A DNA stretch of 64,000 nt from a bacterium (GTDB lineage Bacteria > CAYTYR01 > UBA6262), in assembly GCA_028712365.1 (NCBI GenBank), contig JAQTQE010000007.1:1026-65025 (forward strand), read 5' to 3'. Made by a program: the position numbers and the translations under genes. Below the pieces are notes generated by a model, which saw only the letters and a list, made by a program, of their open reading frames with translations, made no database searches and was not told where the DNA came from. Below are positions 10,301 through 64,000 of this stretch, one piece after another. Position 1 is the first letter of the stretch; each line of letters opens with the position of its first letter.

Positions 10301-11089
10301 TATCCAGCCAGCCAGGTCGTTTACCGCCTGGCAGGCAGCTTCGAAACTGGCGTATCGCCACATATATGTTTGTTGATCGTTAAAATTGTAATTAAATTCG
10401 TTACCGATCGACCAGAACAGCAAGGCAGGATGATCTTTATACGTATTAATAATTTTTTGCGCCAACGCGGTATTGCAGTTTAAACCGTCTACCACCATGA
10501 TGACTTTCAAGCCGTTCCGGTAGGCTTCATCCAGGACTGCCAGGCCTTGTGTCACCGCGTTTGCCCCCTGATCGCCGATCATGGCCATACCATCCTGCCA
10601 ATCCATGAATCCATTACCATTTTCATCCAGGGCTACAGGATACCCGCCGATATATACTATATTGCCATTGGCATCGGTCTGCCACAGGAGGTGATCCGTA
10701 TTTTCATGGAAATATAAACTGCTGTCTTTAGCCAATCCCGGATCAATATACATTCTGATGGTATTGAACCCGGCTTCCCTGATCCGCGGGAAATCATACT
10801 TCGCCATCTCCCACATTCTCTTCCGGCCATCATGCTCGAATGGCGCTCCTGCCGGGTAGGTTTCCGAAGGCCAGAGAGTGGCTACGCTCCAACAGACCCC
10901 CTTGATCACGTAGTTAGTCTCTGCTTTCATCGTCCCGTCTTCCCTGATCTGATGAACTTTTAATTGGTGGCCGTCGACTCTGACCGTAGCAGGCACAGCC
11001 GGGATCGGGGGGAGCGGAGACAAGGTCTTACATGCCGCCAGAAAAACCAGTAGAACTGCCGCGGTGATGATCATTTTAAACACGCGCAT
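7349..11089 (-). CDS. Large multi-domain glycoside hydrolase lipoprotein (1246 aa). It has a GH-A clan TIM-barrel catalytic domain, Ca-binding TSP3-like repeats and Ig/BACON-like domains.
   Basis: The signal is MRVFKMIITAAVLLVFLAAC. The barrel motifs are GFNTIRMYIDPG, FWSIGNEFNYNF and YFSEYGVDAW. The run DHDHDGIYNSVDQDIDGDG...DEDSDDD is acidic and Ca-binding-like. Confidence 0.7.
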   Translation of the reverse strand: MRVFKMIITAAVLLVFLAACKTLSPLPPIPAVPATVRVDGHQLKVHQIREDGTMKAETNYVIKGVCWSVATLWPSETYPAGAPFEHDGRKRMWEMAKYDFPRIREAGFNTIRMYIDPGLAKDSSLYFHENTDHLLWQTDANGNIVYIGGYPVALDENGNGFMDWQDGMAMIGDQGANAVTQGLAVLDEAYRNGLKVIMVVDGLNCNTALAQKIINTYKDHPALLFWSIGNEFNYNFNDQQTYMWRYASFEAACQAVNDLAGWIKANDPNHPVAVCLGEPHYPSYEHYKAGVGLLPNIDLIGLNLYKGKSFDPFYEMYADTVTCNKPYYFSEYGVDAWRYHTDPAKEFEDVASQKEGLSWQWSEIQSRLSAQDNSDSLLGGCAFEWVDEWWKLKGKNPETHDNDPGYPVNNGVPANTYLWPDGCMEEEFWGLNSQDPKTINPLVFFSDMGLIGEQKGGSPAWDFFTWGLPAQGTGYGKINSQADYISLQEGSRLNYSNFKEYAYTGGSGAGNIIPEGHRCTYTEIWGKDYGGGWGLFRTRDFIDLSRFANGDLKFWIKIQQTTTPATPIGEPLKQDIFLKFEDESGLENAVFIWFDESYFSEFNANSTAWQEITVPISALWDSHSYTWQDEYGYKHPANGSHLAKLNLEKMKMVFSVSSRPIRTGNGNIQYWIDHVRWDTGGTSGYNRRARPAITDYRNRYNALNYLKPVFEVEAGSDLNASSARITKNDSLIWDFDASSPACVLAAAFDPDSGRLISKSMKELTSVTAVHNWLDQYDNTSDKYILALAKHKQVNFLAQCAKLGAFGSTLYSSVSPHDPWVFIVYVKNGIGLAKKETKGSGNMAKVTLAVPLDHDHDGIYNSVDQDIDGDGLALAQEIRYGTSITDEDSDDDAVSDSAEVAAGTNPRNPDSKNLAADPPAKLVAYPLTLDWSNNESERYIYLDNDGGKILKYKIYISDDWFSVNCRDHANSEAWTAVTPEAYVYDDLDDFILRVTLDRTKLTATKTYTGTITLLAVDENGTGAGRKDITVSVPVQPELFIAASEVVINRPETARKINIENNGFAAMNWSISQLRPVTWLAITPATGTTVNEMEPVALTVDWSAVTASTHTVMVVDAGSAGKKFITVTLDDPNAVRFPNQLPKSKKSLPALLETDSEHLIIGPLVQAGAFKIKSASGQTISWTLSEDEDWITIIMPVHGDTTGEEDIVTVMVDHGSYIADQTGKVTIAWTDADNNQYKKNIYITMKKQ

Positions 11090-23584: not shown

Positions 23585-23773
23585 CTATTTTTGTACCTTG
23601 GTCATTTCCATTAACGAAAGAGCAATGGAAAAAGCCAAAGAACAAATTGTGAATTGGCCATATGCCTTGACCGAAAATCCCAATAATTCCGATCCCTTCA
23701 TAGCTGCGGCCACCATGGATGTAACAAACCCGACAAAAGCTAGAAAAATGAATATTTCAGACCAACGTCTCAT
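23585..23773 (-). CDS. Small two-TM membrane protein (62 aa), hypothetical.
   Basis: There are two hydrophobic helices and a downstream hairpin. It is the last ORF of the tol-pal run. Coding status is uncertain. Confidence 0.3.
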   Translation of the reverse strand: MRRWSEIFIFLAFVGFVTSMVAAAMKGSELLGFSVKAYGQFTICSLAFSIALSLMEMTKVQK

Positions 23774-23796
23774 TTCTTCACCCCCTTGCTGTTATT

Positions 23797-23895
23797 TGGG
23801 TATTAGGTTAGGAAATAAGTTTGGTTTAAGGTCTCTGGGTGTTAGGCTCCAAACCACAAACCTCAGACTTACTTCCATACCTACTTCTACAACTA
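23797..23895. repeat. Intergenic palindromic repeat, family A, core TACTTCCATACCTACTTC[TC]ACAAC. Copy 1.
   Basis: It is an imperfect inverted repeat whose right arm reads ...CAGACTTACTTCCATACCTACTTCTACAAC. It lies immediately 3' of tolR. Confidence 0.6.
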
Positions 23896-23969
23896 TTAAC
23901 CTTTCTTCAGTTTTCACGAATTCTTAAGAATATATATAGCAAAAAATACATTATTTTGTAAAGCTCTTT

Positions 23970-24377
23970 CTATGGTTTTTCCGGTTCCGTGGCGATAGCC
24001 AGTTTTTCCACTCCGCTTTTTTTCGCGACGTCCATAGCCTGGACAACCACCCCATGCAGTACCGCCCGGTCCGCTTTTATGATCAAAGCAGTATCTTTAC
24101 GGGTGGAATATTCTGCTTTCAATTCCTGGGGTAAAGTAGCCAGATACACTTTTTTTTCATTAAGATAGAACTGGTTATCCTTGGTAATGGTCAACACCAG
24201 CTGTTTTTCCGGATGGGGATCGCTTGTGGCCGCTTTTGGCAGTTTTACTCCTATGGCCTGTGGTAAACCAAAGCTGGCCCCGATCATAAAAAAGATGACC
24301 AGGTTAAAGATAACATCAGTCATCGGGGTTGGGTCCAGCCGCTCTATCAGGCGATGATGTCTTCGCTTAAACTTCAT
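23970..24377 (-). CDS. tolR: Biopolymer transport protein ExbD/TolR.
   Basis: It has a single TM (VIFNLVIFFMIGASF) followed by a periplasmic ExbD fold. Confidence 0.85.
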   Translation of the reverse strand: MKFKRRHHRLIERLDPTPMTDVIFNLVIFFMIGASFGLPQAIGVKLPKAATSDPHPEKQLVLTITKDNQFYLNEKKVYLATLPQELKAEYSTRKDTALIIKADRAVLHGVVVQAMDVAKKSGVEKLAIATEPEKP

Positions 24378-24394
24378 AATGCCCTCATGTCCTT

Positions 24395-25042
24395 CTAATC
24401 TTTTTCCCTGGTCACTATACCTACCAACTCAGCCGATCCTTTTTCTATTCCCAGTACAAAATTATCTACCTTGGAAATAAAATAATTATACGCTACCACT
24501 GTGGGGATCGCGATGAAAAGGCCGTAAGCAGTGGTTATCAGGGCTTCACTCACTCCACTGGCGACAACCTGGGGAGTAGTGACATTGGCCGAGGCAATGG
24601 CATTAAAAGCGGCGATCATCCCGGTTACCGTGCCGGTAAAACCAAGCAAAGTAGAAACACTGGCTAAAGTGGACAAAGGAGATAAAAACTTTTCTAACCG
24701 GGGAATAGCATCCAGCCCCGCTTCTTCCATGGCTTCTTCCATAGCTACCCGGCCATGCTCTTTATCTTTTAGGCCAGCGGCCAGGACAAAGGCCACCGGA
24801 CCGGGAGTCTTTTCGCAGAGGGAGATCGCCTCAGCGACCCGGTCCGCATAAACCATTTTTTTTAGCTCCGCCATAAAACCGGCCAGATCGGTTTTAATCC
24901 GGTGATAATAAAAGAACCTTTCGATGATGATCGCGGCCGATAATATGGAACACATTAACAGCGGCCACATCATTATTCCGCCCTTGGCAAAATACTCCAG
25001 CACGATTTTCTCCTTTTTTTCGCTTTTACTCTCAACTACCAA
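24395..25042 (-). CDS. tolQ: MotA/TolQ/ExbB proton-channel protein.
   Basis: It shows the three-TM topology and the conserved C-terminal helices (LGFTGTVTGMIAAFNAIA...). Confidence 0.85.
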   Translation of the reverse strand: MVVESKSEKKEKIVLEYFAKGGIMMWPLLMCSILSAAIIIERFFYYHRIKTDLAGFMAELKKMVYADRVAEAISLCEKTPGPVAFVLAAGLKDKEHGRVAMEEAMEEAGLDAIPRLEKFLSPLSTLASVSTLLGFTGTVTGMIAAFNAIASANVTTPQVVASGVSEALITTAYGLFIAIPTVVAYNYFISKVDNFVLGIEKGSAELVGIVTREKD

Positions 25043-25085
25043 CTACGAGCCCCGCTGCAAATCGGGGCGGACTATGAACCGGTTC

Positions 25086-26387
25086 CTAAGGTGACCAACT
25101 GGGGGTTTGTATCTCTCCCTTAAATTGGTCAGAAAATTCCCCGGGAAACAAGGGTCGCTGGCTAGAGCCGTCATTATTCATGACAAACAATTGGCTTTGA
25201 CCGTTACGCGTACTGACAAAAACCAGGAATCTCCCGTCAGGCGACCAGCTGGGATTTTCATTACGTTTGGCCCCCTTGGTCAACTGCTGCTGGTAATTAC
25301 CGCTGAGATCGGTAGTAAAAATGTTAAATTCACCCTGTGACATCCGGCAAACATAGGCGATCCGCTCGCCGGTTGGCGACCACTCAGGAGAATCCGTGTA
25401 AGTGTTGTTGTAGATCAACCGGCGCACATTCGCGCCATCAATATCCGTTACGAAGAGTTGCGGTATCCCGGTCCGGTCGCTGATAAAAACAATGTCCCGG
25501 TTGCTTGGCGACCAGCTGGGAGAAGAATCAATATTCTTATTATTGGTCAGGCGGCGCAGCATTTCCCCGACAGGATTCAGCAGGTATAACTCAGGATTAC
25601 CATCTTTGCTCAAGACGATCACCAGTGAGTTGCCGTCAGGAGAATACCTGGCCATGGAATTCAGGCCCTGGTAGCCCGACAACCTTTTTCGCCCGGTGCC
25701 ATTCTCTTTAATGACATATAAGTCAGGATTATTATCCTTATATGAAGTGTAGAGTATCTTATTACCATCAGGAGTCCACTTTGGCAGCAAGACCAGGGAA
25801 TTTTCCTTGGTCACCTGCTTCAATCCATAACCGTCGTAATCAACCGCGTAAATCTCCCGGCTACCTTTGTAGTCGCCTACAAAACATATCCGGGTATGGG
25901 CGATCCCTTTTTCGCCGGTATAGCGGAAAACTATTTCATCGCTGAAATCGTGGACAGACTTGCGCAGGATAGGCTTGACCGCCTTATATCGCACCCCGGT
26001 GACCCTGACCTTACTGGCAGTATCGAACAGATAACATTCCAGGAGATACTGGCCATCTTTTTTAGAGATCGTTCCTTTTACTACCGCGTCCACTCCCTGT
26101 TCGCTTAATTCATTATAATCCAAGGTGGCAGACTGCAATTGTTGTTCTTCTATCCCTTCGGTTATAGTAAAATATCCGGATAAGTACAAGTCATTCTTGA
26201 TGATCGCCGCGATCTGGGCCCCCATATTATCTTCACCCAGGTCTTCGATTTCAGTAAAAGGCGCCACGGCTACGGTTATCTTGCGGGAGTCAAACCTGGA
26301 GACATCGATTCTGACATCAGCCGGAGCCGCAAAAGCAACAGAGACTATGCTAAAAAGTATTATTAAAAGCAGATAAATTTTGCGCAT
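25086..26387 (-). CDS. tolB: Tol-Pal system beta-propeller protein TolB.
   Basis: It has a signal peptide, an N-terminal TolB domain and repeated SPDG/WSPDG blades. Confidence 0.8.
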   Translation of the reverse strand: MRKIYLLLIILFSIVSVAFAAPADVRIDVSRFDSRKITVAVAPFTEIEDLGEDNMGAQIAAIIKNDLYLSGYFTITEGIEEQQLQSATLDYNELSEQGVDAVVKGTISKKDGQYLLECYLFDTASKVRVTGVRYKAVKPILRKSVHDFSDEIVFRYTGEKGIAHTRICFVGDYKGSREIYAVDYDGYGLKQVTKENSLVLLPKWTPDGNKILYTSYKDNNPDLYVIKENGTGRKRLSGYQGLNSMARYSPDGNSLVIVLSKDGNPELYLLNPVGEMLRRLTNNKNIDSSPSWSPSNRDIVFISDRTGIPQLFVTDIDGANVRRLIYNNTYTDSPEWSPTGERIAYVCRMSQGEFNIFTTDLSGNYQQQLTKGAKRNENPSWSPDGRFLVFVSTRNGQSQLFVMNNDGSSQRPLFPGEFSDQFKGEIQTPSWSP

Positions 26388-26388
26388 G

Positions 26389-27072
26389 CTAATCCTCTTT
26401 CATAATATGGTTAAAATGGAAATGTATATTCAGCTCTTTTTCTTGGTACCCTTCTGGCAAAGGAAGAAATTTCTGGCAGCGCAAAATCGCCTTTAAGGCC
26501 AGCTGATCATAAAAATCAACGCCTGAAGATTTTTCTATTTTTAAGTCCTTGATCGTCCCGTCTCTTTCAATTAGAAAATAAACAACTACTTTATGCGAGG
26601 CGATCTGATTAATATCCCAATTGCTTTTCACCTGTTTCGTAAGGCTATTTAAATAATATTGATAATTGAAATCTTTTACATCAGGCACAGCCGTTGTTAG
26701 CTGCGTTTTAGCCGGGGCCGCTTCTACCGGAGCCGGAGCAGCCTGTGGGACTGTTTTAGCCTCTGGCTTTGGCTCAGCGGCTTTTCCTTTTGGCTTAATG
26801 ACAATGGCCTCTTTTTTCGGTTCTGCTTTTTTCTCTTTTGTCTTTTTTGGTTCCTTAGCTTTCTTTTTTTTCAGGACCGGCTTGACTTGTTCCGCCGGCT
26901 GAGCGACACTGGGTGGTTCAGCGACAGGCAATGATACCAGTTCTACCGGGGAAGAGAGCCAATAACGCACGGTCTTCCGCTGGAATCGCGGCCCCGTCAT
27001 CACAAATAAAGCTATATGTAAACAAAGTGACAACAATAACGCTCTTTTAAGGGTCATTTCCGGCGTTATCAC
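26389..27072 (-). CDS. TonB/TolA-like energy-transducer protein, probably the TolA functional analogue.
   Basis: It has an N-terminal TM, a Lys/Pro/Ala-rich linker (KKKKAKEPKKTKEKKAEPKK...) and a C-terminal TonB_C-like domain (VVVYFLIERDGTIKDLKIEKSSG). Confidence 0.65.
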   Translation of the reverse strand: MITPEMTLKRALLLSLCLHIALFVMTGPRFQRKTVRYWLSSPVELVSLPVAEPPSVAQPAEQVKPVLKKKKAKEPKKTKEKKAEPKKEAIVIKPKGKAAEPKPEAKTVPQAAPAPVEAAPAKTQLTTAVPDVKDFNYQYYLNSLTKQVKSNWDINQIASHKVVVYFLIERDGTIKDLKIEKSSGVDFYDQLALKAILRCQKFLPLPEGYQEKELNIHFHFNHIMKED

Positions 27073-27078
27073 TATATC

Positions 27079-27816
27079 CTACTCCTTCTTTTTAGGCTTA
27101 TTCCATTCCTTCTTTTTTTCCTCGGCAGACTTGGCTTCATCAGAGTCAGGATATTGGTCTATAACTTCATCCAGCAAGGCTAAAGCTTCTTTTTTCTTGT
27201 CCGTTAATTCCAAGGCTAAAGCAATTTTAAGTTTGGCCGGGGGATTTTTAATGCTTTGGGCATAAGCCAGGTTGACTTTCTTGAATTCTTCGATCGACTG
27301 GTCATATTTCTGCTGGCTGAAAAAACTCTCCCCGATCCAGTATTGGGCGCTGTCTGCCAGTACCCCGGCGGGATATTTCTCCAGGTATTGCCGAAATCCC
27401 ATTATCGCCAGGTCAAAATTACCCTTGGTATAATCAGTATACGCGGTCTGGTAAAGTTTTTCCGAAGAAACCGTTAATTCAGCCGCGGCCCGGTCTTCCA
27501 GGGCTTTTAACCGCGCTTGATGCGCGGCCTCCAGGTTATCTATCCGCAAACCGATCTTATCCATTTTATTATTACTTTCGTCAACTTTAGCTTCAACCTT
27601 TTGCTGGCCAAGTTCCAGGGTGTCCATCCTGGCCCCGATGTCCGCTTGACCGATCTTGATCTTCGAGGTGGATTTGCTCATGCCCTGCTGTACTCCCCCA
27701 ACCTGCTCCTGCAGCCTGGCCAGGTCCTCTTGCAGCGTAGCCATTTCCTCCCTGGTAGCAAAACAACCAGGCAGGCATAATCCGCCCAATATAAATAATA
27801 AAATTATTCTTTTCAT
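27079..27816 (-). CDS. cpoB: Tol-Pal system protein CpoB/YbgF (coiled-coil plus TPR).
   Basis: It has a lipoprotein-like signal, an N-terminal coiled coil and C-terminal TPRs (YTKGNFDLAIMGFRQYLEKYPAG...AQYWIGESF). Confidence 0.75.
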   Translation of the reverse strand: MKRIILLFILGGLCLPGCFATREEMATLQEDLARLQEQVGGVQQGMSKSTSKIKIGQADIGARMDTLELGQQKVEAKVDESNNKMDKIGLRIDNLEAAHQARLKALEDRAAAELTVSSEKLYQTAYTDYTKGNFDLAIMGFRQYLEKYPAGVLADSAQYWIGESFFSQQKYDQSIEEFKKVNLAYAQSIKNPPAKLKIALALELTDKKKEALALLDEVIDQYPDSDEAKSAEEKKKEWNKPKKKE

Positions 27817-27822
27817 ATTCGC

Positions 27823-28383
27823 CTATTTGACAGCCGGCGCCAAATGTGCCCGCCGGTTCTTGGCCCAGGCTTCTTCATTATGACCCGGATCAAGCGGTTT
27901 TTCTTTGCCGTAACTGATGGTGAAAATACGGGCTGAATTGATACCGGCCGCGATCAGGTAACTACGTACGGCAGAAGCTCTTTTCTGCCCGAGAGCCAGG
28001 TTGTATTCAACCGTACCCCGTTCATCCGCGTGTCCTTCGATCTGGACGACAACCTTGGGATTGCTCTTCAAGGTTTCCACGTTTTTAGCCAGTATATTCA
28101 TTGCCTCCTGGGTTAAAGTATATTGGTCATATCCAAAATAGACATCGTCCAGAGAAACGTTCATGACCCTGCTGAAATCTATCCCCCGGGCGCTTTGTTC
28201 TTCAGGGATAGCGCCTTCGTCCATGCTCCTATCATCTGTTTCCTTATCTTCAGCGGCTAATGCTTGGGCTCTTGTCCTGGCATCAGCCGAGGTTGGTTTT
28301 ACCGCTTTTTTAGCGCACCCTACCAACAAGAACAATATTAATAACCCCATGTAACCGAGCACAATTAACCTGCTTTTTTTCAT
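27823..28383 (-). CDS. pal: Peptidoglycan-associated lipoprotein (OmpA-family C-terminal domain).
   Basis: The signal is LLVGC. The OmpA_C motifs are VQIEGHADERGTVEYNLALGQKRA and YGKEKP. Confidence 0.85.
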   Translation of the reverse strand: MKKSRLIVLGYMGLLILFLLVGCAKKAVKPTSADARTRAQALAAEDKETDDRSMDEGAIPEEQSARGIDFSRVMNVSLDDVYFGYDQYTLTQEAMNILAKNVETLKSNPKVVVQIEGHADERGTVEYNLALGQKRASAVRSYLIAAGINSARIFTISYGKEKPLDPGHNEEAWAKNRRAHLAPAVK

Positions 28384-54101: not shown

Positions 54102-54185
54102 TGCCGCGGAAGGGATTTGAACCCCCAAGTCCTTGCGGACACATGGTCCTAAGCCATGCGTGTCTGCCAATTCCACCACCGCGGC
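54102..54185 (-). tRNA. tRNA-Leu (anticodon UAG), type II.
   Basis: The reverse complement reads GCCGCGGTGGTGGAATTGGCAGACACGCATGGCTTAGGACCATG...GGTTCAAATCCCTTCCGCGGCA. The anticodon loop is CUUAGGA. CCA is not encoded. Confidence 0.8.
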
Positions 54186-54456
54186 GTATTTTGCTGAAAG
54201 CTGAATGCTGAAAGCTAAAAGCCGAAGAGAAATGTTTTTGGCATCCAGCATTTAGCATTTAGCATTTAGCCAAAATTTACTTCGTAAATTTTGGGCCGTA
54301 GAGGACTCGAACCTCCAACCTTATCCTTAAGAGGGATCTGCTCTACCATTGAGCTAACGGCCCATATATAAACTGCTTGATGCTGGAAGCTGAAAGCTTG
54401 ATGCAAAATCTTTTAGCATCCAGCTTTTAGCATTTAGCGGTCTTTAGTAAATTAAG
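54186..54456. repeat. tRNA-spacer heptamer-based hairpins.
   Basis: GCTGAAAGCTGAATGCTGAAAGCTAAAAGC pairs with GCATCCAGCATTTAGCATTTAGCATTTAGC at 54186-54291. A similar hairpin lies at 54375-54447. Confidence 0.45.
54292..54363 (-). tRNA. tRNA-Lys (anticodon CUU), probable.
   Basis: The reverse complement reads GGGCCGTTAGCTCAATGGTAGAGCAGATCCCTCTTAAGGATAAGGTTGGAGGTTCGAGTCCTCTACGGCCCA. The anticodon loop is CUCUUAA, with one mismatched stem pair at 27-43. Confidence 0.65.
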
Positions 54457-54529
54457 CGCGCCTGCTGGGACTTGAACCCGGACATCTAGCTCCGGAGGCT
54501 AGCGCTCTATCCAATTGAGCTACAGGCGC
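54457..54529 (-). tRNA. tRNA-Arg (anticodon CCG).
   Basis: The reverse complement reads GCGCCTGTAGCTCAATTGGATAGAGCGCTAGCCTCCGGAGCTAGATGTCCGGGTTCAAGTCCCAGCAGGCGCG. The anticodon loop is CUCCGGA. Confidence 0.8.
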
Positions 54530-54737: not shown

Positions 54738-56150
54738 TTACTCGAACTTAAATCCTTCTTGCGTGACTACTTTAATGCAGGCATCAACTACCGCTGGATC
54801 ATAGAGGGTCCCTTTATTTTGGGAAATATGTTGCAGCGCTTCATTCATGGATAAAGCGGGACGATACGGACGGTCAGAAGCCATGGCCTCGACGACATCT
54901 GCGACTCCTAATATTTTAGCTTCCAGTAGTATTTGCTCATTGACCAAGCCTTTGGGGTAGCCGGAACCATTGGGCCTTTCGTGATGCTGTACCACGATCT
55001 GGGCGATCGGCCAGGCAAAATCAATGTTTTTCAAGATATCAAAAGCTACCTGGGGATGTAGTTTCATCAAGTTAAACTCATTCTTATCCAAAGCTCTTGG
55101 TTTGGTCAATATCTCGGCTGGCACGCAAATCTTGCCAATATCATGCAGGACACCGGCAATACGGATCATTTCGATCTGATCCTGAGTAAGCTTCATCTCT
55201 TTAGCAATGGCGCAAGCCAGGTTAGCTACGCGGCGCTGATGGCCGGCAGTATAAGCGTCGCGCATTTCCAGGGTCAGGGCCATAGCATTAATGATACCTT
55301 CCAGGACTTTCTTCTGCTGGACCAGGCTTTCCTGGACCTTTTCTTCTGCCATGGTACGCTCAATGATCTCTTTAACCAGCTTTTCATTAATTTCACTTAA
55401 TTCAGCGGTACGTAATTCCACCTGTTTTTCCAGGTAATCACGGGTTACCGTGATCTTTTGCAGGTTTTCGGCCATTTTATTGAACGAACTTGCCAATAAG
55501 CCGATCTCATCATTTGTTTTAATGGGTACTTTATAATCCAGGTCTCCCCGGGAAATATTTTGCGTACCTATTACCAGTTGGTCGATCGGTTTGCCCAGCA
55601 TGATCCTGATCAACCAGGAACTGCCGATAGCGGCCAGCAACATGCCTATGGCGCCCATGATCCAGATCGTTTTTTTGGCCTGCTCCAGCTTACTGGTGAG
55701 ACTATCCAAAGAAAATACGATCTTTACCTTGCCGATAGTCTCAATTTCCTTTTCGATCTGGCCGCCGCCTAAGATCAATTCTTCTTCACTTACCGACGCT
55801 TTTATCTTTTCGGTAATAATATTATTAGAATAAGCCCGCAACTGCTGGCTTTCTTTTTTACTGTCTTGAAATAATACCATTCCGGCTTGATCCTTAACTT
55901 CACAGAAAATAACATCTTTCTGCTGCATGGCTCCTTTACCGATCTTAGAAATCGAATCCTGGTCACTGATCAGCACGGGATATTCACAGCTATTGACTAC
56001 GCTGTTCAAGAGAGTATACGCCCGCTCATCCAACTCTACTAATAACGCCTTCTTTTCCTGGTTGACAAAATAGTACGAAAAGAATCCGCCCAGGATACCG
56101 ATCACCATAGTCACTAATAGAATAATTTTTTTATCGATGCCAAATCTCAT
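54738..56150 (-). CDS. Membrane-bound HD-GYP phosphodiesterase with a periplasmic sensor region and HAMP domain.
   Basis: Two TM helices flank a ~140-aa periplasmic domain. A HAMP domain and coiled coil follow. The HD motif is VLHDIGK and the GYP motif is HHERPNGSGYPKGL. Confidence 0.8.
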   Translation of the reverse strand: MRFGIDKKIILLVTMVIGILGGFFSYYFVNQEKKALLVELDERAYTLLNSVVNSCEYPVLISDQDSISKIGKGAMQQKDVIFCEVKDQAGMVLFQDSKKESQQLRAYSNNIITEKIKASVSEEELILGGGQIEKEIETIGKVKIVFSLDSLTSKLEQAKKTIWIMGAIGMLLAAIGSSWLIRIMLGKPIDQLVIGTQNISRGDLDYKVPIKTNDEIGLLASSFNKMAENLQKITVTRDYLEKQVELRTAELSEINEKLVKEIIERTMAEEKVQESLVQQKKVLEGIINAMALTLEMRDAYTAGHQRRVANLACAIAKEMKLTQDQIEMIRIAGVLHDIGKICVPAEILTKPRALDKNEFNLMKLHPQVAFDILKNIDFAWPIAQIVVQHHERPNGSGYPKGLVNEQILLEAKILGVADVVEAMASDRPYRPALSMNEALQHISQNKGTLYDPAVVDACIKVVTQEGFKFE

Positions 56151-57076
56151 TATTTATTCTCACCGAATACATTATTTGTGTTTTCGACGATTTCCGGGGA
56201 AAACTTTATATCCAGCCGGGCAGCGGTAGACAGGTTAAGGGAAAAACTGGTTTTCCTCGGTTTGACCGGCTTGATATCCACAGGTCTTTCCCCATTGAGT
56301 ACGCGCAAAGCTATTTCCCCGGCCTGGCGGCCCAGGTCCTCATAGTCACAATCAATAGAGAGTAAGGCGCCGGATTTAGAATGATACTTGGATAATCCGA
56401 TCACGGGAAACTTCTGCCGCAGGCTTTCCAGGAGCAGGTATTTCACGGATTGGGGGAAATAGATCTTGGCATCGGGGATCATCAGCAGGCAATTGATCTG
56501 CCAGGTAATGTCCGCTAGAGCGGCGGGCAATTCTTTTTCATCATTCACTTTTCGTTTAACCAATTTCAGCCCTAGTTCGCCACAGGTCTGATTCAATTCA
56601 GTAACCTTATTGGTTGAATCCGCAGTATAAACAACGCCAATTTTCTTTGCCTCAGGGAATACTTTCTGCAGGGCTTCCAACTGCATCCTAACCGGGACAT
56701 CCAGCAGTACTCCGGCCAAGTTCGCGCCGGTCAATTTCTCCGGATTAAGGACCATAGCATATACTATCGGTTTATCTTTAAATGATTCCTCTGCCAGCTT
56801 GGCTGCCCTAGTGCCTATCGCGAAAACGATATCCGGTTTCTCGGCGTTTACCTGAGCCACTATTTTTTGCGTATTTTTATCCAGTAGGAAATACTCGGTA
56901 AACCATAAAGCTATCTTTTTATCCTTAAAAAACTCCTTAAAACCAGTACAGGATTGTAAATACGGCTCAATATCCGAAGAATAAATAACCGAAACCAATA
57001 CCCGGTCAGCAGCCTGGCATTGGCTCCAGGTTAAGGCTAATATAAATACACTTAACAGTATCGCTTTGATCTTCAT
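56150..57076 (-). CDS. Periplasmic substrate-binding protein of the uncharacterised ABC_sub_bind (PF04392-like) family. No permease or ATPase partner is present.
   Basis: It has a signal peptide and an SBP type-I fold pattern (IGVVY...PDAKIYFPQSVKYLLLESL...PVIGLS). It is paralogous to 59320-60267. Confidence 0.6.
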   Translation of the reverse strand: MKIKAILLSVFILALTWSQCQAADRVLVSVIYSSDIEPYLQSCTGFKEFFKDKKIALWFTEYFLLDKNTQKIVAQVNAEKPDIVFAIGTRAAKLAEESFKDKPIVYAMVLNPEKLTGANLAGVLLDVPVRMQLEALQKVFPEAKKIGVVYTADSTNKVTELNQTCGELGLKLVKRKVNDEKELPAALADITWQINCLLMIPDAKIYFPQSVKYLLLESLRQKFPVIGLSKYHSKSGALLSIDCDYEDLGRQAGEIALRVLNGERPVDIKPVKPRKTSFSLNLSTAARLDIKFSPEIVENTNNVFGENK

Positions 57077-57097
57077 CCTGCTTTTAAATCCTTAATC

Positions 57098-59302
57098 CTA
57101 CCAGAGATAATTTACCTTGACTTCATAACTCACCGGTTCAATTTCATAGTAATGCCCCGGGTCCATCGCATTACCGTTCAGATAGAGTTTATTGGTCACG
57201 TTCTTACCGATGATCGACAGATTCAGGTTTTTCAGCCCAACGTTTTTGGCCGTGGCAGTTAGGTCGACGGTAGAACCACCTGTAAATACGCTCGGGTGAT
57301 AGTAATCCGCCCAGAATTCTTCACTTCTTACTGCGATCTTCCCATGATGTTTCCAGATACCGGAGATACTATAGTTTTCAGTAATGTCGTAATATCCGCC
57401 AATGGACACATTGTACCGCGGCACGCTGGAACGGTTGAATTTGCCTTCATCTGGAGCATTATTCCAGGCCCAGGCAATTTCATCCATTGCCTTGTCAACA
57501 GCATTCACTCCTGATCCGCTGGCAAATTTTGAATCGTGCAAATTCTTGATCCGATTTTCAAATAATTGACTGCCGGAAATAAAAGCGCCAAATTGGCGCC
57601 AGTCATAAGACAAGTTTGCTTCTACTCCTCTTACCTTCTGGTCACCCATATTGAAAAAGCCGCGGAGTTCGCCAGGATTCAATACTGGCCACGCTGTGCC
57701 AGTATATATAAAGTTGGCAAAGTCATATAGTTGCGCTTGATAATAACTGGTGAGCAATTTCATGTTCTTGATCGGCCGCCAGTCAATGACGAACTCAGTG
57801 CTTTCCGAGGTAGTAGCATTCTGAGTCCCTCTTAGATCAATATTATTATGTTCTGAATATCTCTCAAAAGTATTCATCCTGGTAAACGCTTGCTGATAAA
57901 TGCCTTTCAAATACAGGTTCTCGATCGGGCTATACACTACCGCGCCTTTCGGGAAGAACTTGTGCATTTTCTCACGCGAATCACGGAATTGGTCGCCAGG
58001 ATTAAATTCACTTACATAACGACCGCCACCAGTCAGACTGAGATTATCCAGTAACTGATACTTGGCATCAATATAACCCTCAAAAGCAGCTATATCATTA
58101 CCCATTTCGGTAAAGGTAGGCAAAAATTCCGGCGGATCAATAATATTGCCGCTGCCGGCCACATTAGGATCCCAGGGCCTGGTATTTGGGTTCCAGTTTA
58201 CTGTCGGGCCGGACCCCTGCGGGCTCCACACGCCAACCTGCGCGCCGAGCACTACGCTTAGTTGTTCAATAGGCGATAGCAGGAAATTGGTATCAAGCTC
58301 ATATCTTTTCTCACTTTTCATCTCATAGCCGCCCACCGTCTCATCCGTGAAGCGGAATACGTCGTACATCTGGTAAAAATTGTTATATCTTAAGGTGGTA
58401 GTCCAATCGACATTCTTGAAATATTCAGGCTTCTTGATAATGATATTCAAGTCATCCGCATAATTCTCAATATACTTAGCGCTAAAACCTTTATCCTGAC
58501 GCCCGGTCCTGGATTCAAGCCGCCGATACGCGATAGTGAATTCCTTATAATTGGCGCTGGCAAATATTTCATAATCAGGCAGGGGATTAGCGATATCATG
58601 AGCATCCAAATTAGTCGTATTGGGGCCCCACCACTCTTTAATATTCCGGTAAAAACCTTTATAGTATACTGAATTAGCTAAAAATTGGTAGGAGAAATCT
58701 TCAGTTGGTTTTTGAGAATAATTAACATTATATCGCGCCATGCCATATTTCCCTATAGTAATACCAGTCTTCAGGCCCTGGAAATGATCTGGACCTTTAT
58801 GAACAATGTTTATCGTGGCCTGGGTCGCTTGGCCACCCCAGATAGAGGTGTTCGGCCCCTTAATTAATTCAATCCTTTCCACTTCCGCCATGTCACCAGC
58901 CGGCCAGTTATTCTCACCCAAACCTAAAAATGTCGGGAAAAGCATGCCATCATAAAGGAATAGTATTTTGTCATTGGCATAACCTACGACTCCTCTTAGC
59001 GCCAATACTTCATCCATACCTTTATGTGTATGATAGCCACCTTCTATCACTTCAAACAAGTCATTGATATTCCTGATCGCATACCTTTCCAGAAACTTCC
59101 CCGGGATAATAGTCACATTAGCTGCCGCTTCATAGGTTTTTTCCAACCGTCTGGTAACCCCGCTGACATTCTCCGAAAATAACAATTCATCTTCTGTCCG
59201 CTCCACCGGTGACAACATTACCGTGGATTCCGCTTGAACTGGAGAGTAAAGGCCAAGGCTGCAGGCCATTAACAATAATAATATTGAAACATTCTTCAGC
59301 AT
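57098..59302 (-). CDS. TonB-dependent-receptor-like outer-membrane beta-barrel protein with a plug domain. Paralogue 1.
   Basis: It has a signal peptide and a plug motif (ANVTIIPGKF...LRGV...ILFLYDGMLF...IERIELIKGPNTSIWGGQATQATINIV). The ~600-aa barrel ends ...VKVNYLW, a terminal aromatic residue. Confidence 0.7.
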   Translation of the reverse strand: MLKNVSILLLLMACSLGLYSPVQAESTVMLSPVERTEDELLFSENVSGVTRRLEKTYEAAANVTIIPGKFLERYAIRNINDLFEVIEGGYHTHKGMDEVLALRGVVGYANDKILFLYDGMLFPTFLGLGENNWPAGDMAEVERIELIKGPNTSIWGGQATQATINIVHKGPDHFQGLKTGITIGKYGMARYNVNYSQKPTEDFSYQFLANSVYYKGFYRNIKEWWGPNTTNLDAHDIANPLPDYEIFASANYKEFTIAYRRLESRTGRQDKGFSAKYIENYADDLNIIIKKPEYFKNVDWTTTLRYNNFYQMYDVFRFTDETVGGYEMKSEKRYELDTNFLLSPIEQLSVVLGAQVGVWSPQGSGPTVNWNPNTRPWDPNVAGSGNIIDPPEFLPTFTEMGNDIAAFEGYIDAKYQLLDNLSLTGGGRYVSEFNPGDQFRDSREKMHKFFPKGAVVYSPIENLYLKGIYQQAFTRMNTFERYSEHNNIDLRGTQNATTSESTEFVIDWRPIKNMKLLTSYYQAQLYDFANFIYTGTAWPVLNPGELRGFFNMGDQKVRGVEANLSYDWRQFGAFISGSQLFENRIKNLHDSKFASGSGVNAVDKAMDEIAWAWNNAPDEGKFNRSSVPRYNVSIGGYYDITENYSISGIWKHHGKIAVRSEEFWADYYHPSVFTGGSTVDLTATAKNVGLKNLNLSIIGKNVTNKLYLNGNAMDPGHYYEIEPVSYEVKVNYLW

Positions 59303-59319
59303 ATCTCATCCCCCTTTTG

Positions 59320-60267
59320 CTATTTTACCGTTTCTTCGTAAATAAAGGTAGCCGCTTTGATAATCTCCGGAGAGAACTTGACCCCTAATTTTTTCGCCAC
59401 TATCAAATTAAGGGAGAAATTGATCTTCCGCGGCTGCACTGAAGCGATATCCTTCGGTTTGGTCCCGTCTATTATCTTGACCGCTAATTCGCCGGCTTGT
59501 TTTCCCATATCCAGATAATCGCAATCAAAGGATATGATCGCCCCGTCCTTGCTATAATACCTGGATAAGCCAACCACCGGTAACTTTTGTTTTAGGCTTT
59601 CCTGCAGTAAATATTTTACTGACTGGGGAAAATATATTTGCGTGTCCGGGATCATGATAAATATTTCTACCTGGGATTTTATCCCCCTAATAGCTTCTGG
59701 CAACTGCTTTTCCGAATTGACTTTTTCGGCAATTAATTTCATGCCTAATTCATTACTAGCCTGTTGTAACTCCACGGCTTTAGCCGTGGTCCGGTCGGAA
59801 AACACCGCCCCTAGTATATTTACTCCAGGAAACAATTTTTTAATCCACTCCAATTTCATTTTTGCCGGGATATCCATTAAAACCCCAGTGATATTTGGCT
59901 CATTAAACAATCCAGGCTCTAGCACCAGGGCAAAAACGATAGGGATATTTTTAAAACTAACTTGCGCGAGCCTGGTCGCCTTAGTGCCCAGGGCAAATAT
60001 GATCTGCGGTTTTTCCTCCGCGACCTGGGAAATGATCTTTTCCGGGCTTTGTTCATTTAAATTATACTTGGAAACCCATAAAGCAACATTTTTGGAAGTC
60101 AAATACGTCCTGAAACCTTCCCAAGCTTGCTGGTATGGTTCACTACTTGAAGAATAAATTACTGAAACGATCACCCGTTCCGCCGCATAGCTATTAATAG
60201 CCGCGCAAGCGGGATTAATAAAAAGCCAGCTGGTTATGACGCTTAATAATAAAGCAATGTATTTCAT
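59320..60267 (-). CDS. Periplasmic PF04392-like substrate-binding protein, paralogue 2.
   Basis: It shares about 50 % identity with 56150-57076 over the whole length (VIVSVIYSS...PIVFALVL...IMIPDTQIYFPQSVKYLLQESL). Confidence 0.6.
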   Translation of the reverse strand: MKYIALLLSVITSWLFINPACAAINSYAAERVIVSVIYSSSSEPYQQAWEGFRTYLTSKNVALWVSKYNLNEQSPEKIISQVAEEKPQIIFALGTKATRLAQVSFKNIPIVFALVLEPGLFNEPNITGVLMDIPAKMKLEWIKKLFPGVNILGAVFSDRTTAKAVELQQASNELGMKLIAEKVNSEKQLPEAIRGIKSQVEIFIMIPDTQIYFPQSVKYLLQESLKQKLPVVGLSRYYSKDGAIISFDCDYLDMGKQAGELAVKIIDGTKPKDIASVQPRKINFSLNLIVAKKLGVKFSPEIIKAATFIYEETVK

Positions 60268-60292
60268 TTATCTGTCCTGCTCCTGGCGTTTA

Positions 60293-62443
60293 TTACCATA
60301 AATAACTTGCTTTTACTTCATAATAAACCGGATTAATCTCGGTAAAAGCGGAAGCATCCATCGCGCTGCCGGTAATATAATTGGAATTCAATACATTTTT
60401 ACCAATAATGCTAAAACTCAGGTTTTTAAATATCACGTCCCTGGCTACCGCGGAAAGATCGATCTGCGTCCCGCCATTAAAATAAGAATCCAGGCGTCCG
60501 CCGCCGCTGCGATCACCCCGGACCTGGATCTTTTGGTGGACCTTATATATTCCGGAAACGCTATATTTATCAGTCAGATCATAATAACCGCCAATACTTA
60601 AGTTATAGCGCGGTACAGACGCTTTATTGAAATCTTTGTCCATCTCGGGAATTATCACTCCTGATCCAGTGGCCAGGCCAGGCACTATATTATCGATCTT
60701 ATTCTTCAGCAAATGGCTGCCGGAAATAAAGCCCCCCATATTTTTCCAGTCATACGAAATATTCGCTTCCAGGCCTTGTACCTGGTGATCGCCGACGTTG
60801 AAAAATCCCCGATATTGGCCGGGATCGACAAAAGGCCAAGCCGACCCGGTATACACAAAATTAACAAAATCATATAACGTCGCTTGGTAATAGCTTCCCA
60901 GTATTTTTGCATTTTTAAATGGCCTCCAATCAACCACGAACTCTGTTGACTTGGAAGTTGTAGCTTTTTGAGATCCTCTTTTATCAATATTGATCTGTTC
61001 AGAATACCGCTCAAAAGTATTCAATCTGGTAAAAGCCTGCTGGTAAATGCCCTTCAAATAAAAATTTTCCAGCGGATTGTAGACTACAGCTGCTTTTGGG
61101 AAAAAATGATGCAGTTTCTCCCTTTCATCCCTGAATTGGTCACCGGGATTGAACTCCTCTACATACCTGCCGCCGGTGGTCAGAGTAATATTATCACGGA
61201 TCTTGTATTTAATATCGATATATCCTTCCAGCGCCGCGATGTCATTACCCATCTCTGTGAAGGTAGGTAGAAATTCCGGTGGATTATAAATATTGCCGGA
61301 ATTAGGGACATTGGGATCCCACCAGCGCATGACCGGGTTCCAGGCAACGGACGAGCCGGAACCCTGCGGGCTCCAGACGCTGGCCTGCGCGCCCAGGACC
61401 AGGTCCAGCCGATCGGTGAACGTGACCAGTATATTCGAGTCAACCTCATACCTTTTTTCAGTTTTTAATTCATAATTACTGGTACCAGCGTCAGCGGAAA
61501 AATTATGAAACACATCATACATTTGATAAAAATTAGCGAACCTGAATGTAGTCGTCCAATTGATATTGCTGAAAAATTCTGGTTTCTTAATTATGACATT
61601 TATATCATCAACAAAGTTATTAATATAAATATTCCGGTAGATCCTGCTGGCAGTTATTTCCTCCCGGTGCACTCTCTCTTCCAAACGTCGATAGGATAAA
61701 GTAAAATCTTTATACCGCACATTGGCAAAGACCTGGTAATCAGGCAGAGGATTAACCTGGTTGGCCCCGTCCGTGATCCGCAGGCGCACTCCGCCATATT
61801 CTTCGATCCAACGCCGGCATCCTTTATAATAAGTTGAGTTTAACAACAGCTGGTAGCTCAAGTCATCATTAGGTTTCTGCGCATAATTTATATTATAGCG
61901 AGCCATACCGAACTTGCCGGCTACCACGCTCGTTTTCAAGCCGCTAAATTGTTCCGCCCCTTTATGAACAATATTGATCGTCCCCTGGGTCCCCTGACCG
62001 CCCCAAATTGATGTATTTGGTCCCTTGATAAGTTCGATTTTTTCCACATCATCAAAAGTATTTGGCCAGTTGTTCTCGCCTAAGCCTAAAAATGTCGGGA
62101 AAAGCATGCCATCATACAGGAACAATATTTTGTCATTGGCGTATCCGGAGACGCCTCTCAACACCAGGACTTCATCAACGCCCTTTATGGTGTGCCAGCC
62201 GCCCTCTAACACTTCAAACAGGTCATTGATATTCCTAATGGCATATCTTTCCAGGAATTTCCCGGGGATAACCGTAACATTGGCTGCCGCTTCATAGGTT
62301 TTTTCTTGCCGTTTAGTAACGCCCGTCACTATTTCCTCAAACAAAAGCTGTTCTTCGGTTAGCTCTTCCTGGCCCAATACTTCCAGGTTGATCCCGAACA
62401 AGATAATAAAGATCACACAAATAGTCATAAAATACTTAGGCAT
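60293..62443 (-). CDS. TonB-dependent-receptor-like outer-membrane protein, paralogue 2.
   Basis: It has a signal peptide and the same plug and barrel motifs as paralogue 1 (IELIKGPNTSIWGGQGTQGTINIV ... YEVKASYLW). Confidence 0.7.
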   Translation of the reverse strand: MPKYFMTICVIFIILFGINLEVLGQEELTEEQLLFEEIVTGVTKRQEKTYEAAANVTVIPGKFLERYAIRNINDLFEVLEGGWHTIKGVDEVLVLRGVSGYANDKILFLYDGMLFPTFLGLGENNWPNTFDDVEKIELIKGPNTSIWGGQGTQGTINIVHKGAEQFSGLKTSVVAGKFGMARYNINYAQKPNDDLSYQLLLNSTYYKGCRRWIEEYGGVRLRITDGANQVNPLPDYQVFANVRYKDFTLSYRRLEERVHREEITASRIYRNIYINNFVDDINVIIKKPEFFSNINWTTTFRFANFYQMYDVFHNFSADAGTSNYELKTEKRYEVDSNILVTFTDRLDLVLGAQASVWSPQGSGSSVAWNPVMRWWDPNVPNSGNIYNPPEFLPTFTEMGNDIAALEGYIDIKYKIRDNITLTTGGRYVEEFNPGDQFRDEREKLHHFFPKAAVVYNPLENFYLKGIYQQAFTRLNTFERYSEQINIDKRGSQKATTSKSTEFVVDWRPFKNAKILGSYYQATLYDFVNFVYTGSAWPFVDPGQYRGFFNVGDHQVQGLEANISYDWKNMGGFISGSHLLKNKIDNIVPGLATGSGVIIPEMDKDFNKASVPRYNLSIGGYYDLTDKYSVSGIYKVHQKIQVRGDRSGGGRLDSYFNGGTQIDLSAVARDVIFKNLSFSIIGKNVLNSNYITGSAMDASAFTEINPVYYEVKASYLW

Positions 62444-62466
62444 TGTATTGTTCCCCTATTTTTATT

Positions 62467-64000
62467 TTACCAGAGATAACCGATTTGCACTTCGTAATAC
62501 ACCGGATTGATTTCCTGAAAATGGCCAGGATCCATGGAACTGCCGGTGATGAAGTGGGAATTAAGCACATTTTTACCGATTATGCTTAAATCCAGGTTCT
62601 TGACAAAAACGCCTTTCGCCGTACCGGCCAGATCCAACTGAGTCCCGCCATTGAAGTTATAGCCCGACCACCCGCCACCATCGCGGTCACCCCGGACCTG
62701 GATCTTTTGATGGACCTTATAAACGCCTGAAACACTGTATTGCGAAGTAATATCATAATAAGCTCCTAAAGCGATATTATAACGGGGTACCGCGGATTTA
62801 TTAAAATCAGAATCGATCTCCGTATCAATAACGCCGGTGCCTCCAGCCAATCCCGTCACTATGTTGGCGATCTTATTCTTGAGCAAATGGCTGCCGGAAA
62901 TAAAGCCGCCCATATTCTTCCAGTCATATGAAATATTGGCCTCTATCCCCCTGACTTGATGATCACCAACATTAAAAAATCCCCGCAACTGGCCAGGCAC
63001 TATAGTCGGCCACGAAGTTCCGGTATAGACAAAATTAACAAAATCATAAAGAGTCGCTTGATAATAGCTGGCGAGCACTTTCATATTGGTTATAGGCTTC
63101 CAATCAATTACCAACTCACTAGATTCACTGGTGGTCGCTTTTTGGCTACCTCTCTTGTCAATATTGACTTGCTCAGAATACCGCTCGAAAGTATTCAATC
63201 TGGTAAAAGCCTGCTGGTAAATACCTTTCAGGTATAGATTCCGTAGCGGGTTATAAACAGCCGCGACCTTGGGGAAAAACTTATGCAGTTTTTCCCTGTC
63301 ATCACGGAACTGGTCACCAGGATTAAATTCACCGACATAGCGGCCGCCTACGGTAAAACTCAATTCTTTTAAAACATCATACTTAACGTCGACATAAGTT
63401 TCTATGGCGGCAATATCATTACCCATTTCAGTAAAAGTAGGCAAGAATTCCGGAGGATCTACCACATTGCCCGTGCCTGGTGTATTCGGATCCCAGCTGC
63501 GGGTAACCGGATTCCAAGAAACGGTAGGGCCTGACCCTTGAGGGCTCCACACCCCGGCCTGGACCCCAAAAATAAGGCTTAGCTTATCAACAGGAGTGAT
63601 CAACAGGTTAGAATCCACTTCATATCTTTTCTCAGATTTCATCTCATACGTATCAGGCAAATCTCCTTGATTAAAATGAAACACATCATACATCTGATAG
63701 AAATTATTGAATCGTAAGGTAGTGGTCCAATCGGTATTTTTGTAATATTCCGGTTTTTTGATTATGATATTCACATCATCAGCGTAATTTTCAATATATT
63801 TCTTCCGATAAGTGCCATCATAATTAGTAATTTGCCTTAACACCCGTTCTTCCAGGCGGCGATAAGCTAAACTAAAATCTTTATACGCTACATTAGCAAA
63901 CACCTGATAATCAGGCATAGGATTAAGCATATCCGCGCCATCCACAACCTGCGTCGTCACCGTACCCCATCCCTCAGAGGCTCTCCAGGCGCCTTCATAA
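62467..64000 (-). CDS. TonB-dependent-receptor-like outer-membrane protein, paralogue 3. The N-terminus runs past the right edge of the window.
   Basis: The frame stays open to nt 64000 (…YEGAWRASEGWGTVTTQVVDGADMLNPMPDYQVF). It aligns to the middle of paralogues 1 and 2 and ends ...YEVQIGYLW. Confidence 0.65.
   Translation of the reverse strand, partial: YEGAWRASEGWGTVTTQVVDGADMLNPMPDYQVFANVAYKDFSLAYRRLEERVLRQITNYDGTYRKKYIENYADDVNIIIKKPEYYKNTDWTTTLRFNNFYQMYDVFHFNQGDLPDTYEMKSEKRYEVDSNLLITPVDKLSLIFGVQAGVWSPQGSGPTVSWNPVTRSWDPNTPGTGNVVDPPEFLPTFTEMGNDIAAIETYVDVKYDVLKELSFTVGGRYVGEFNPGDQFRDDREKLHKFFPKVAAVYNPLRNLYLKGIYQQAFTRLNTFERYSEQVNIDKRGSQKATTSESSELVIDWKPITNMKVLASYYQATLYDFVNFVYTGTSWPTIVPGQLRGFFNVGDHQVRGIEANISYDWKNMGGFISGSHLLKNKIANIVTGLAGGTGVIDTEIDSDFNKSAVPRYNIALGAYYDITSQYSVSGVYKVHQKIQVRGDRDGGGWSGYNFNGGTQLDLAGTAKGVFVKNLDLSIIGKNVLNSHFITGSSMDPGHFQEINPVYYEVQIGYLW

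Follow-up and report, generated by a model that had tools for sequence, protein, structure and literature searches.

What would a bacterium gain from placing outer-membrane receptors, periplasmic binding proteins and a predicted second-messenger enzyme side by side, with no transporter among them? The question is raised by one end of a 64,000-nucleotide stretch of contig JAQTQE010000007.1 (assembly GCA_028712365.1; the whole 64-kb stretch is hereafter 'the window') from an uncultured Elusimicrobia-like lineage, where a minus-strand run fills position 54738 to the window end and comprises, in order of transcription, a partial TonB-dependent receptor (TBDR3), a complete one (TBDR2), a PF04392 substrate-binding protein (SBP2), TBDR1, SBP1 and a membrane protein with HAMP and HD-GYP domains. 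A first-pass annotation of the sequence had proposed a sensory or uptake relay: the functional linkage of the three gene types stands, as their order recurs across phyla, and the uptake side is unlikely, as no ATP-binding cassette (ABC) partner accompanies them. The design of the cassette is rarely studied but widespread, and the cluster most likely senses a cue from outside the cell and signals to an enzyme that probably degrades cyclic di-GMP (c-di-GMP). On balance, we favour a reading in which these genes form an envelope-spanning signalling cassette rather than a nutrient-uptake operon, with signals relayed outside-in from receptor to SBP to HD-GYP protein.

The main support for this reading is the conservation of the cassette across phyla. 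A census of 27 non-redundant loci was compiled from exact-protein look-ups and from a scan of species-representative genomes, queried with an alignment of eight closer SBP sequences, and was annotated with iterated hidden Markov models checked by Pfam. At 22 of the 27 loci the SBP gene is directly followed by a transducer built of a transmembrane (TM) segment, a periplasmic domain, a second TM segment and HAMP, in which the periplasmic domain of ~130 amino acids (aa) is homologous whatever the output domain attached to it; SBP stop and transducer start overlap by a few nucleotides in many. A TBDR gene lies immediately 5' of the SBP at 16 loci and inside the cluster at 19. Hosts include Elusimicrobia (Elusimicrobiota), Ignavibacteria, Cloacimonadota, Gemmatimonadota, an anammox-related metagenome-assembled genome (MAG), Firestonebacteria and Desulfobacterales, in all of which, as in other MAGs, the same gene order is found, together with Desantisbacteria, Eisenbacteria, Pirellulales and others. 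Conserved order in related MAGs, on which the first-pass annotation had let its proposal depend, is what the neighbourhoods contain. A fortuitous adjacency of unrelated TBDR, SBP and HD-GYP genes, in favour of which one may say that a shared strand is uninformative in so co-directional a window, is effectively refuted by this recurrence and is further opposed by gaps of 17-25 nt and a stop/start overlap within the cluster itself; we regard it as extremely improbable.

In the census the output of the transducer is usually a histidine kinase, with HD-GYP restricted to the window's Elusimicrobia-like clade. Within that clade the SBPs are 62-84% identical and the cassette occurs in the layouts STSN, TSTSN and TTSTSN; given this varying copy number, the TBDR/SBP module has been amplified recently. 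The copy nearest to the single SBP of other phyla is SBP1, yet SBP1 and SBP2 each have orthologues of their own (those of SBP2 in L005 and L013-L016) and are 50% identical to one another. At one census locus (L018, 8974-10917), SBP and kinase are split apart by an AbiEii-like ATPase gene (AAA_21/AAA_15) together with a 219-aa gene, in what looks like a mobile or defence insertion.

It must be considered whether the binding proteins simply serve an ABC permease encoded elsewhere, such that the HD-GYP protein merely eavesdrops on the loaded SBP of an uptake system, in the manner of Tar with maltose-binding protein. Outside the sensor-linked clade PF04392 is a transporter family, and the window's 5' flank is unseen. 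In two control loci retrieved by tblastn, from a P. aeruginosa plasmid (L040) and a Salinivibrio plasmid (L041), the canonical PF04392 gene indeed sits directly upstream of genes for an ABC permease and ATPase; the plasmid search that yielded them had been aimed at a cultured example of the sensor-linked SBP, returned canonical transporter operons alone, and its hits were kept as controls. By contrast, phmmer found no homologue of the canonical partner permeases in the window or the 27 related loci, and there the partner ATPase queries matched only UvrA, the sole ABC ATPase-like open reading frame (ORF) of the window, and one weak unrelated ORF, in agreement with the first-pass statement that no permease or ATPase gene is nearby. 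Upstream of the cassette in syntenic loci are TPR or prismane genes instead, and the invariant neighbour is the transducer, often with a stop/start overlap. SBP1 and SBP2 are true transporter-less orphans and belong to a distinct clade of PF04392. Because they are orphans, and because the canonical motifs have been replaced in them, a transport role with a remote permease is quite unlikely.

The extent of that replacement was established by aligning six canonical PF04392 members, among them CD0873, VC_1101 and SP1069, whose crystal structures contain bound Tyr, Phe and Trp, with 15 sensor-linked proteins. Every motif common to the canonical set is substituted in the sensor-linked clade: HP..D is replaced by PY, TPxAQ by GT[RK]A, DP with its 8-residue loop by NP, G[TLV]SD by GVLLD and [TI]DN by PD[AT]K. 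The equivalent of CD0873 Glu-263 is Ser, and that of Tyr-279 is retained. Similarly, the NCBIfam TrpX model scores SBP1 at 88.9 bits and SBP2 at 83.9 bits against a cut-off of 390 (range across the clade, 84-107 bits), and NCBIfam holds no model for the sensor-linked clade. Since the canonical motifs are gone, we infer a changed pocket that would not bind alpha-amino acids and, likewise, which of the motif residues would contact a ligand.

The SBPs are proposed to dock on their invariant neighbour, the transducer. The HD-GYP protein consists of TM1, a periplasmic alpha/beta domain, TM2, HAMP, a long helix and HD-GYP, an order consistent with the AlphaFold2 (AF2) secondary structure and with the first-pass description, which had put the periplasmic domain at ~140 aa where we count ~130. 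No Pfam model, CHASE8 included, matches residues 29-159 of the protein. The AF2 model of this sensor domain has a long helix at the N-terminus together with two short ones, four strands and the TM2 helix, with a core predicted local distance difference test (pLDDT) score of ~80-85; its best structural match is a LapD-type partner-binding domain, followed by the PDC/sCache sensor domains of WalK, PhoR and CitA. Profile comparison aligns it with the CHASE8 N-terminus of a kinase encoded downstream of a YfiR-like protein (hhalign probability 90.9%, E 1e-6, 151 columns), and over its N-terminal 185 residues the window protein shares 42% identity with the N-terminus of a 1305-aa hybrid kinase encoded 3' of an SBP in an Ignavibacteria MAG. 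We would therefore describe the domain as CHASE8-like, CHASE8 being the domain that YfiN carries in the periplasm.

When 1.84 billion cluster representatives were scanned in full with HMMER, 252 proteins of this sensor family were recovered, always with the domain at the N-terminus and, where named, always from uncultured MAGs; a word-indexed protein search with the 185-aa sensor fragment had found one fragment, reflecting the limit of the word index and not rarity. When output domains were tallied for 84 family representatives, HAMP was present in 83, HATPase_c in 68, HisKA in 56, the methyl-accepting chemotaxis protein (MCP) signalling domain in two, HD-GYP in two (query included) and GGDEF in none, so that the HD-GYP domain appears as a rare output swap on a mostly kinase-linked module. 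Stand-alone 542-aa HAMP-HD-GYP proteins were entertained as cassette members and rejected, having no SBP or TBDR gene nearby and weak N-terminal similarity. Two further loci are worth recording here. At L010 (8001-12852; Polarisedimenticolaceae MAG), an orphan SBP, an sCache_4-HAMP-GAF kinase and a response regulator with GAF and HD-GYP domains, with no TBDR, make up a two-component path to the output that the window's HD-GYP protein combines in a single chain. At L038 (143-3908), a porin-like gene, a 196-aa gene and a stand-alone HD protein accompany an sCache_4-HAMP-HD-GYP protein 41% identical to that of the window.

The catalytic motifs of the HD-GYP domain are intact (H336-D337, H389-H390, G397-Y398-P399), and it aligns best to the active enzymes V-cGAP3 (5Z7C, 2e-34) and PmGH (4MCW, 2e-32); on these grounds it is predicted to be catalytic. 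Its substrate is likely to be c-di-GMP, with 3'3'-cyclic GMP-AMP (cGAMP) a possible alternative, considered because the best relative in the Protein Data Bank is cGAMP-specific. Intact motifs also bear on whether the flow of information might run the other way, as in LapD/DvhD-type systems, with the HD-GYP domain sensing cytoplasmic c-di-GMP and the periplasmic domain binding or releasing the SBP to control TBDR function. DvhD's HD-GYP domain, however, is degenerate (HD to SQ, HH to MN), whereas that of the window keeps HD, HH and GYP in alignment with active enzymes; the 68 sensor-domain proteins of 84 that are histidine kinases signal from outside to inside; and a LapG-like protease is absent from the cluster, among whose ORFs there is no protease gene. 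Such inside-out control is accordingly a doubtful reading, to which we attach very little weight.

The receptors would be the first components to meet the cue. TBDR1 and TBDR2 are 63% identical, TBDR2 and TBDR3 69%, and TBDR1 and TBDR3 61%, so that the paralogy recognised in the first-pass annotation holds and its estimate of 55-65% was slightly low. All three end in ...YLW (...SYLW in TBDR2). In TBDR2 a signal peptide and the TonB-box-like segment EEIVTGVTKR are followed by plug and barrel; comparison of N-terminal motifs places this segment and SENVSGVTRR, likewise from the window TBDRs, where relatives carry EIPxVxTAxR. Pfam finds no STN signalling domain in the window's TBDRs, and the mature N-terminus leads straight into the plug. 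Between TBDR1 and TBDR2 the plugs are 79-90% identical per 30-residue window (~85% overall), whereas identity is just 38-50% in barrel segments 211-240, 270-296, 595-624 and 655-684, in one of which TBDR1 has a 14-residue insertion relative to TBDR2. Conserved plugs with divergent barrel segments are the pattern expected of diversified ligand recognition feeding a common periplasmic partner. The third copy is present at full length in the syntenic locus L013. An acidic motif, EELLF, is conserved upstream of the TonB box; it was entertained as an SBP docking site and dropped, being common in many non-proteobacterial TBDRs. The sole candidate energizer for the receptors seen in the window is a Tol-Pal-type cluster (23970-28383, minus strand) encoding an OmpA/Pal-like lipoprotein, a TPR (CpoB-like) protein, a TonB_C-domain protein, TolB, MotA/ExbB/TolQ and ExbD/TolR.

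Taken as a relay, the cluster would work as follows. The TBDRs, differing mainly in their barrel segments, would capture an external ligand at the outer membrane, and the ligand itself, or else a receptor state that it induces, would be passed on in the periplasm to SBP1 and SBP2. The SBP would then dock on the CHASE8-like periplasmic domain of the inner-membrane transducer, and the resulting conformational change would travel through TM2, HAMP and the signalling helix to the HD-GYP domain, altering its hydrolysis of c-di-GMP or possibly another cyclic dinucleotide. Several receptor/SBP pairs would in this manner converge on one HD-GYP enzyme. What we infer in this scheme is that a ligand is bound, that the proteins touch one another, and with which sign and in which direction the enzyme would be regulated.

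The coordinates of the six genes and of the transducer's domains are collected in the table. All six ORFs delimited by the first-pass annotation are present on one strand, and Pfam bears out each family it named: plug and barrel in TBDR1 and TBDR2, barrel in TBDR3, PF04392 in both SBPs, and HAMP with HD_5 in the transducer. The intergenic gaps, given there as 17-25 bp, are 23, 25, 17 and 21 nt long, and a purine-rich motif like that of Shine-Dalgarno sites is present in each. The SBP1 and HD-GYP genes overlap by 1 nt, stop and start together reading TAATG, so that the two appear to be translationally coupled. The earlier argument for a single operon keeps its force with respect to the short gaps, to which the overlap now adds, but its appeal to a shared strand is empty, because all but one of the long ORFs of the window lie on the minus strand.

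Features of the cluster in window coordinates. Pfam gathering scores used: Plug 23.9, TonB_dep_Rec_b-barrel 27 and PF04392 25.9 bits.
Feature	Position	Strand	Description	Pfam evidence
TBDR3	62467..64000, continues past window	(-)	C-terminal 510 aa only; N-terminus outside window	TonB_dep_Rec_b-barrel 1.7e-17, 64.8 bits
TBDR2	60293..62443	(-)	716 aa	Plug 4.8e-9 (37.1 bits), barrel 5.2e-17 (63.3 bits)
SBP2	59320..60267	(-)	315 aa, secreted PF04392 protein, diverged duplicate	PF04392 1.6e-33, 116.6 bits
TBDR1	57098..59302	(-)	734 aa	Plug 3.1e-10 (40.9 bits), barrel 2.9e-19 (70.7 bits)
SBP1	56150..57076	(-)	308 aa, secreted PF04392 protein	PF04392 1.1e-32, 113.8 bits
Membrane HD-GYP transducer	54738..56150	(-)	470 aa	HAMP 1.1e-15, HD_5 4.8e-39 (134 bits)
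Periplasmic sensor domain of HD-GYP protein	55674..56066	(-)	~residues 29-159; CHASE8-like, PAS/PDC fold; proposed SBP docking site	
HAMP domain of HD-GYP protein	55458..55595	(-)	residues 186-231	PF00672 1.1e-15
HD-GYP catalytic domain	54789..55277	(-)	residues 292-454	HD_5 4.8e-39

Three tRNA genes (Arg-CCG, Lys-CTT and Leu-TAG; 54102-54529), then argG and argH, follow 3' of the HD-GYP gene, which is therefore the last of its unit; the 5' end of the cluster falls outside the window. Consensus scans for promoters and terminators were uninformative. From the HD-GYP stop to tRNA-Arg, a spacer of 211 nt has an unusually stable fold (z -3.15) that includes a perfect 9-bp hairpin, and hairpins in the tRNA spacers give spurious microRNA matches (54193-54263 and 54372-54441). 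Elsewhere in the window, the one long ORF off the minus strand lies at 23598-23927; two very large ORFs, at 7349-11089 and 17850-21725 (1246 and 1291 aa), have signal-peptide-like N-termini; and GC skew is negative in every 2-kb bin but one, 18001-20000, where GC also climbs to 0.52.

How, then, does the relay compare with systems already described? A functional parallel appears to be offered by Cycloclasticus sp. P1, where one cluster contains genes for a TBDR of 687 aa (pahS), a two-lobe SBP of the periplasm with 318 aa (pahP) and a kinase of 771 aa (pahK) (PMC10570129, PMC8547461). PahP has a three-stranded hinge and is reported to bind ligand directly; unliganded, it sits on PahS (PMC10570129). 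Surface plasmon resonance, co-immunoprecipitation, two-hybrid and Förster resonance energy transfer experiments indicate that PahS binds PahP and that ligand-loaded PahP leaves PahS to bind PahK, which signals to a GacA-type regulator (PMC10570129, PMC8547461). The gene order is the same as in the window, namely a TBDR, a transporter-less periplasmic SBP and an inner-membrane signalling protein, with the SBP shuttling the signal in Pah. The differences are, firstly, that the Pah output is a histidine kinase described without a periplasmic sensor domain, whereas that of the window is a one-component HD-GYP protein with a CHASE8-like domain; and secondly, that the window has three receptors and two SBPs, in an uncultured Elusimicrobia-like host. 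None of the retrieved SBP homologues reproduces the published pocket residues of PahP, and a match by length was likewise unsuccessful.

In evolutionary terms, the cassette reads as a cousin of YfiB-YfiR-YfiN (TpbB) of Pseudomonas and E. coli in which a full two-lobe PF04392 protein substitutes for YfiR, a TBDR for YfiB and HD-GYP for GGDEF. Both have an outer-membrane protein, a soluble periplasmic regulator and an inner-membrane c-di-GMP enzyme of TM/periplasmic/TM/HAMP build, with CHASE8 in YfiN and its CHASE8-like counterpart in the window. YfiB, however, is no TBDR but an OmpA-like lipoprotein; YfiR, of the DUF4154 family, has a single lobe, whereas the window's SBPs are two-lobe PF04392 proteins; and YfiN makes c-di-GMP through GGDEF, whereas the window protein is predicted to degrade it through HD-GYP. 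This kinship gives rise to the main rival of the relay, the sole point of difference being whether a ligand occupies the SBP cleft: the SBP would be a constitutive periplasmic inhibitor or activator with no diffusible ligand, and a ligand or envelope stress would make the TBDR capture or release it, freeing the HD-GYP protein. Besides the sensor domain, several observations fit such sequestration: the nearest structural neighbours of YfiR are PF04392 proteins (PMC4655355), and the C-lobe and shared C-terminal motif of the SBP profile align with a YfiR-like protein at modest significance (hhalign 39%, E 3e-4); some cassettes have a one-lobe YfiR-like protein in the same position, one of them with HD-GYP output; the amino-acid-binding motifs are lost in the SBPs; and in Pah it is the unliganded SBP that sits on the receptor. 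On the other side, the SBPs retain both lobes and the hinge of a ligand-binding protein, PahP itself being reported to bind ligand directly, and the SBP has been duplicated along with barrel-divergent TBDR copies, which fits diversified ligand recognition. On ligand entry, SBP binding and the direction of control, sequestration fits as well as the relay does; overall we consider it a serious contender, albeit a rather unlikely one.

It is worth noting that several points count against the relay with ligand-loaded SBPs that we prefer. Only relatives retrieved with this SBP clade enter the census, and it does not describe PF04392 as a whole. Eight of its 27 loci have no TBDR inside the cluster (one of them, L027, on a contig that begins at the SBP), so that a receptor need not accompany the SBP-sensor pair. 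Where receptors are present, those of the window's clade match those of other cassettes just in the N-terminus and plug (29% over ~200 aa), and the TBDR partnership is therefore conserved by position and not demonstrably by orthology. No dedicated TonB-ExbBD system is seen in the window, only the Tol-Pal-type cluster with its TonB_C protein. Confidence in the AF2 models is moderate (pLDDT 71-73), and PahP was compared by its published description.

A further relative is a trio curated by NCBIfam: NF053590 (TOL_0244 TBDR), NF053591 (TOL_0243 YfiR-like) and NF053592 (kinase near YfiR-like). Its cassette layout, and that of a locus with the same kind of periplasmic protein, L042, are identical to the window's, with a YfiR-like part of 150-200 aa in place of PF04392 at ~310 aa. 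At L042 (647-5233), a TBDR (658 aa), a DUF4154 protein (195 aa) and a CHASE8-HAMP-GAF-HD-GYP protein (661 aa) form a YfiR-like counterpart of the window cassette, and the HD-GYP catalytic domain is 55% identical to the window's; nearby are a FecR-domain gene and a sigma-54 two-component pair. In an Ignavibacteria MAG (L024, 3920-16842), two TBDRs, a PF04392 protein and a hybrid kinase are immediately followed by a TBDR, a YfiR-like protein (203 aa) and a CHASE8-HAMP-PAS kinase. In two other phyla, TBDRs that belong to PF04392 cassettes have NF053590 as their best NCBIfam match (166 and 152 bits), although the window's own proteins fall far under the cut-offs of the trio (TBDRs 51-61 bits against 645; HD-GYP N-terminus 34 against 194). 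Literature searches found no experimental characterisation of the trio, and nothing specific on PF04392 with kinases or on YfiR-like proteins with TonB. From these two loci, the NF053590 matches and the alignment of SBP with a YfiR-like protein, we conclude that the window cassette belongs to a broader set composed of a TBDR, a YfiR-like or PF04392 protein, and a CHASE8-type transducer with its output.

Docking of a transporter-less periplasmic binding protein on a membrane kinase or c-di-GMP enzyme is familiar from LuxP-LuxQ, TorT-TorS, NspS-MbaA and ScrB-ScrC. These use other SBP families, and to our knowledge none has an outer-membrane receptor in the operon or an HD-GYP output. In FecA-FecR-FecI it is a TBDR that starts the trans-envelope signal, which depends on a receptor with an N-terminal STN domain, on an anti-sigma factor and on an extracytoplasmic function (ECF) sigma factor; the window's TBDRs, by contrast, have no STN domain, and the cluster has no FecR/ECF sigma partner. 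Alongside FecA/FecR/ECF sigma and the SusC/hybrid two-component systems, cassettes of a TBDR, a two-lobe PF04392 or one-lobe YfiR-like protein and a CHASE8-type transducer may tentatively be proposed as a third mode of TonB-dependent cell-surface signalling, widespread and spanning phyla, though possible rather than probable at present, in which a soluble protein of the periplasm shuttles from the periplasmic face of the receptor to a sensor in the inner membrane and back; in the window's lineage it would be wired to second-messenger degradation, with several receptor/SBP pairs acting on a single HD-GYP enzyme.

Were the relay correct, cross-phylum genomics would lend support to the idea of TBDRs feeding periplasmic binding proteins as signal carriers, which has so far been based mainly on PahS, PahP and PahK, and the cassettes would tie an orphan PF04392 clade to the YfiR/YfiN paradigm. 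In addition, a small sensor-domain family with no Pfam model (~250 cluster representatives) would be defined, with docking of a PF04392 binding protein as its likely role, and outer-membrane sensing would be linked to c-di-GMP turnover in this lineage with no two-component step. There would also be a consequence for annotation, in that the 'ABC transporter substrate-binding proteins' and 'HD domain-containing proteins' of such cassettes are mislabelled in MAGs as genes of transport or unknown function.

To call the architecture undescribed, as the first-pass annotation did to the best of its knowledge, was an overstatement: PahS-PahP-PahK was published in 2023 (PMC10570129), YfiB-YfiR-YfiN is known, the NCBIfam trio is curated, and an HD-GYP cassette exists at L042. 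The design thus already has one experimental example, in Pah, and one curated sister family, in the trio; what is new in the window is the HD-GYP output and the amplified receptor/SBP inputs.

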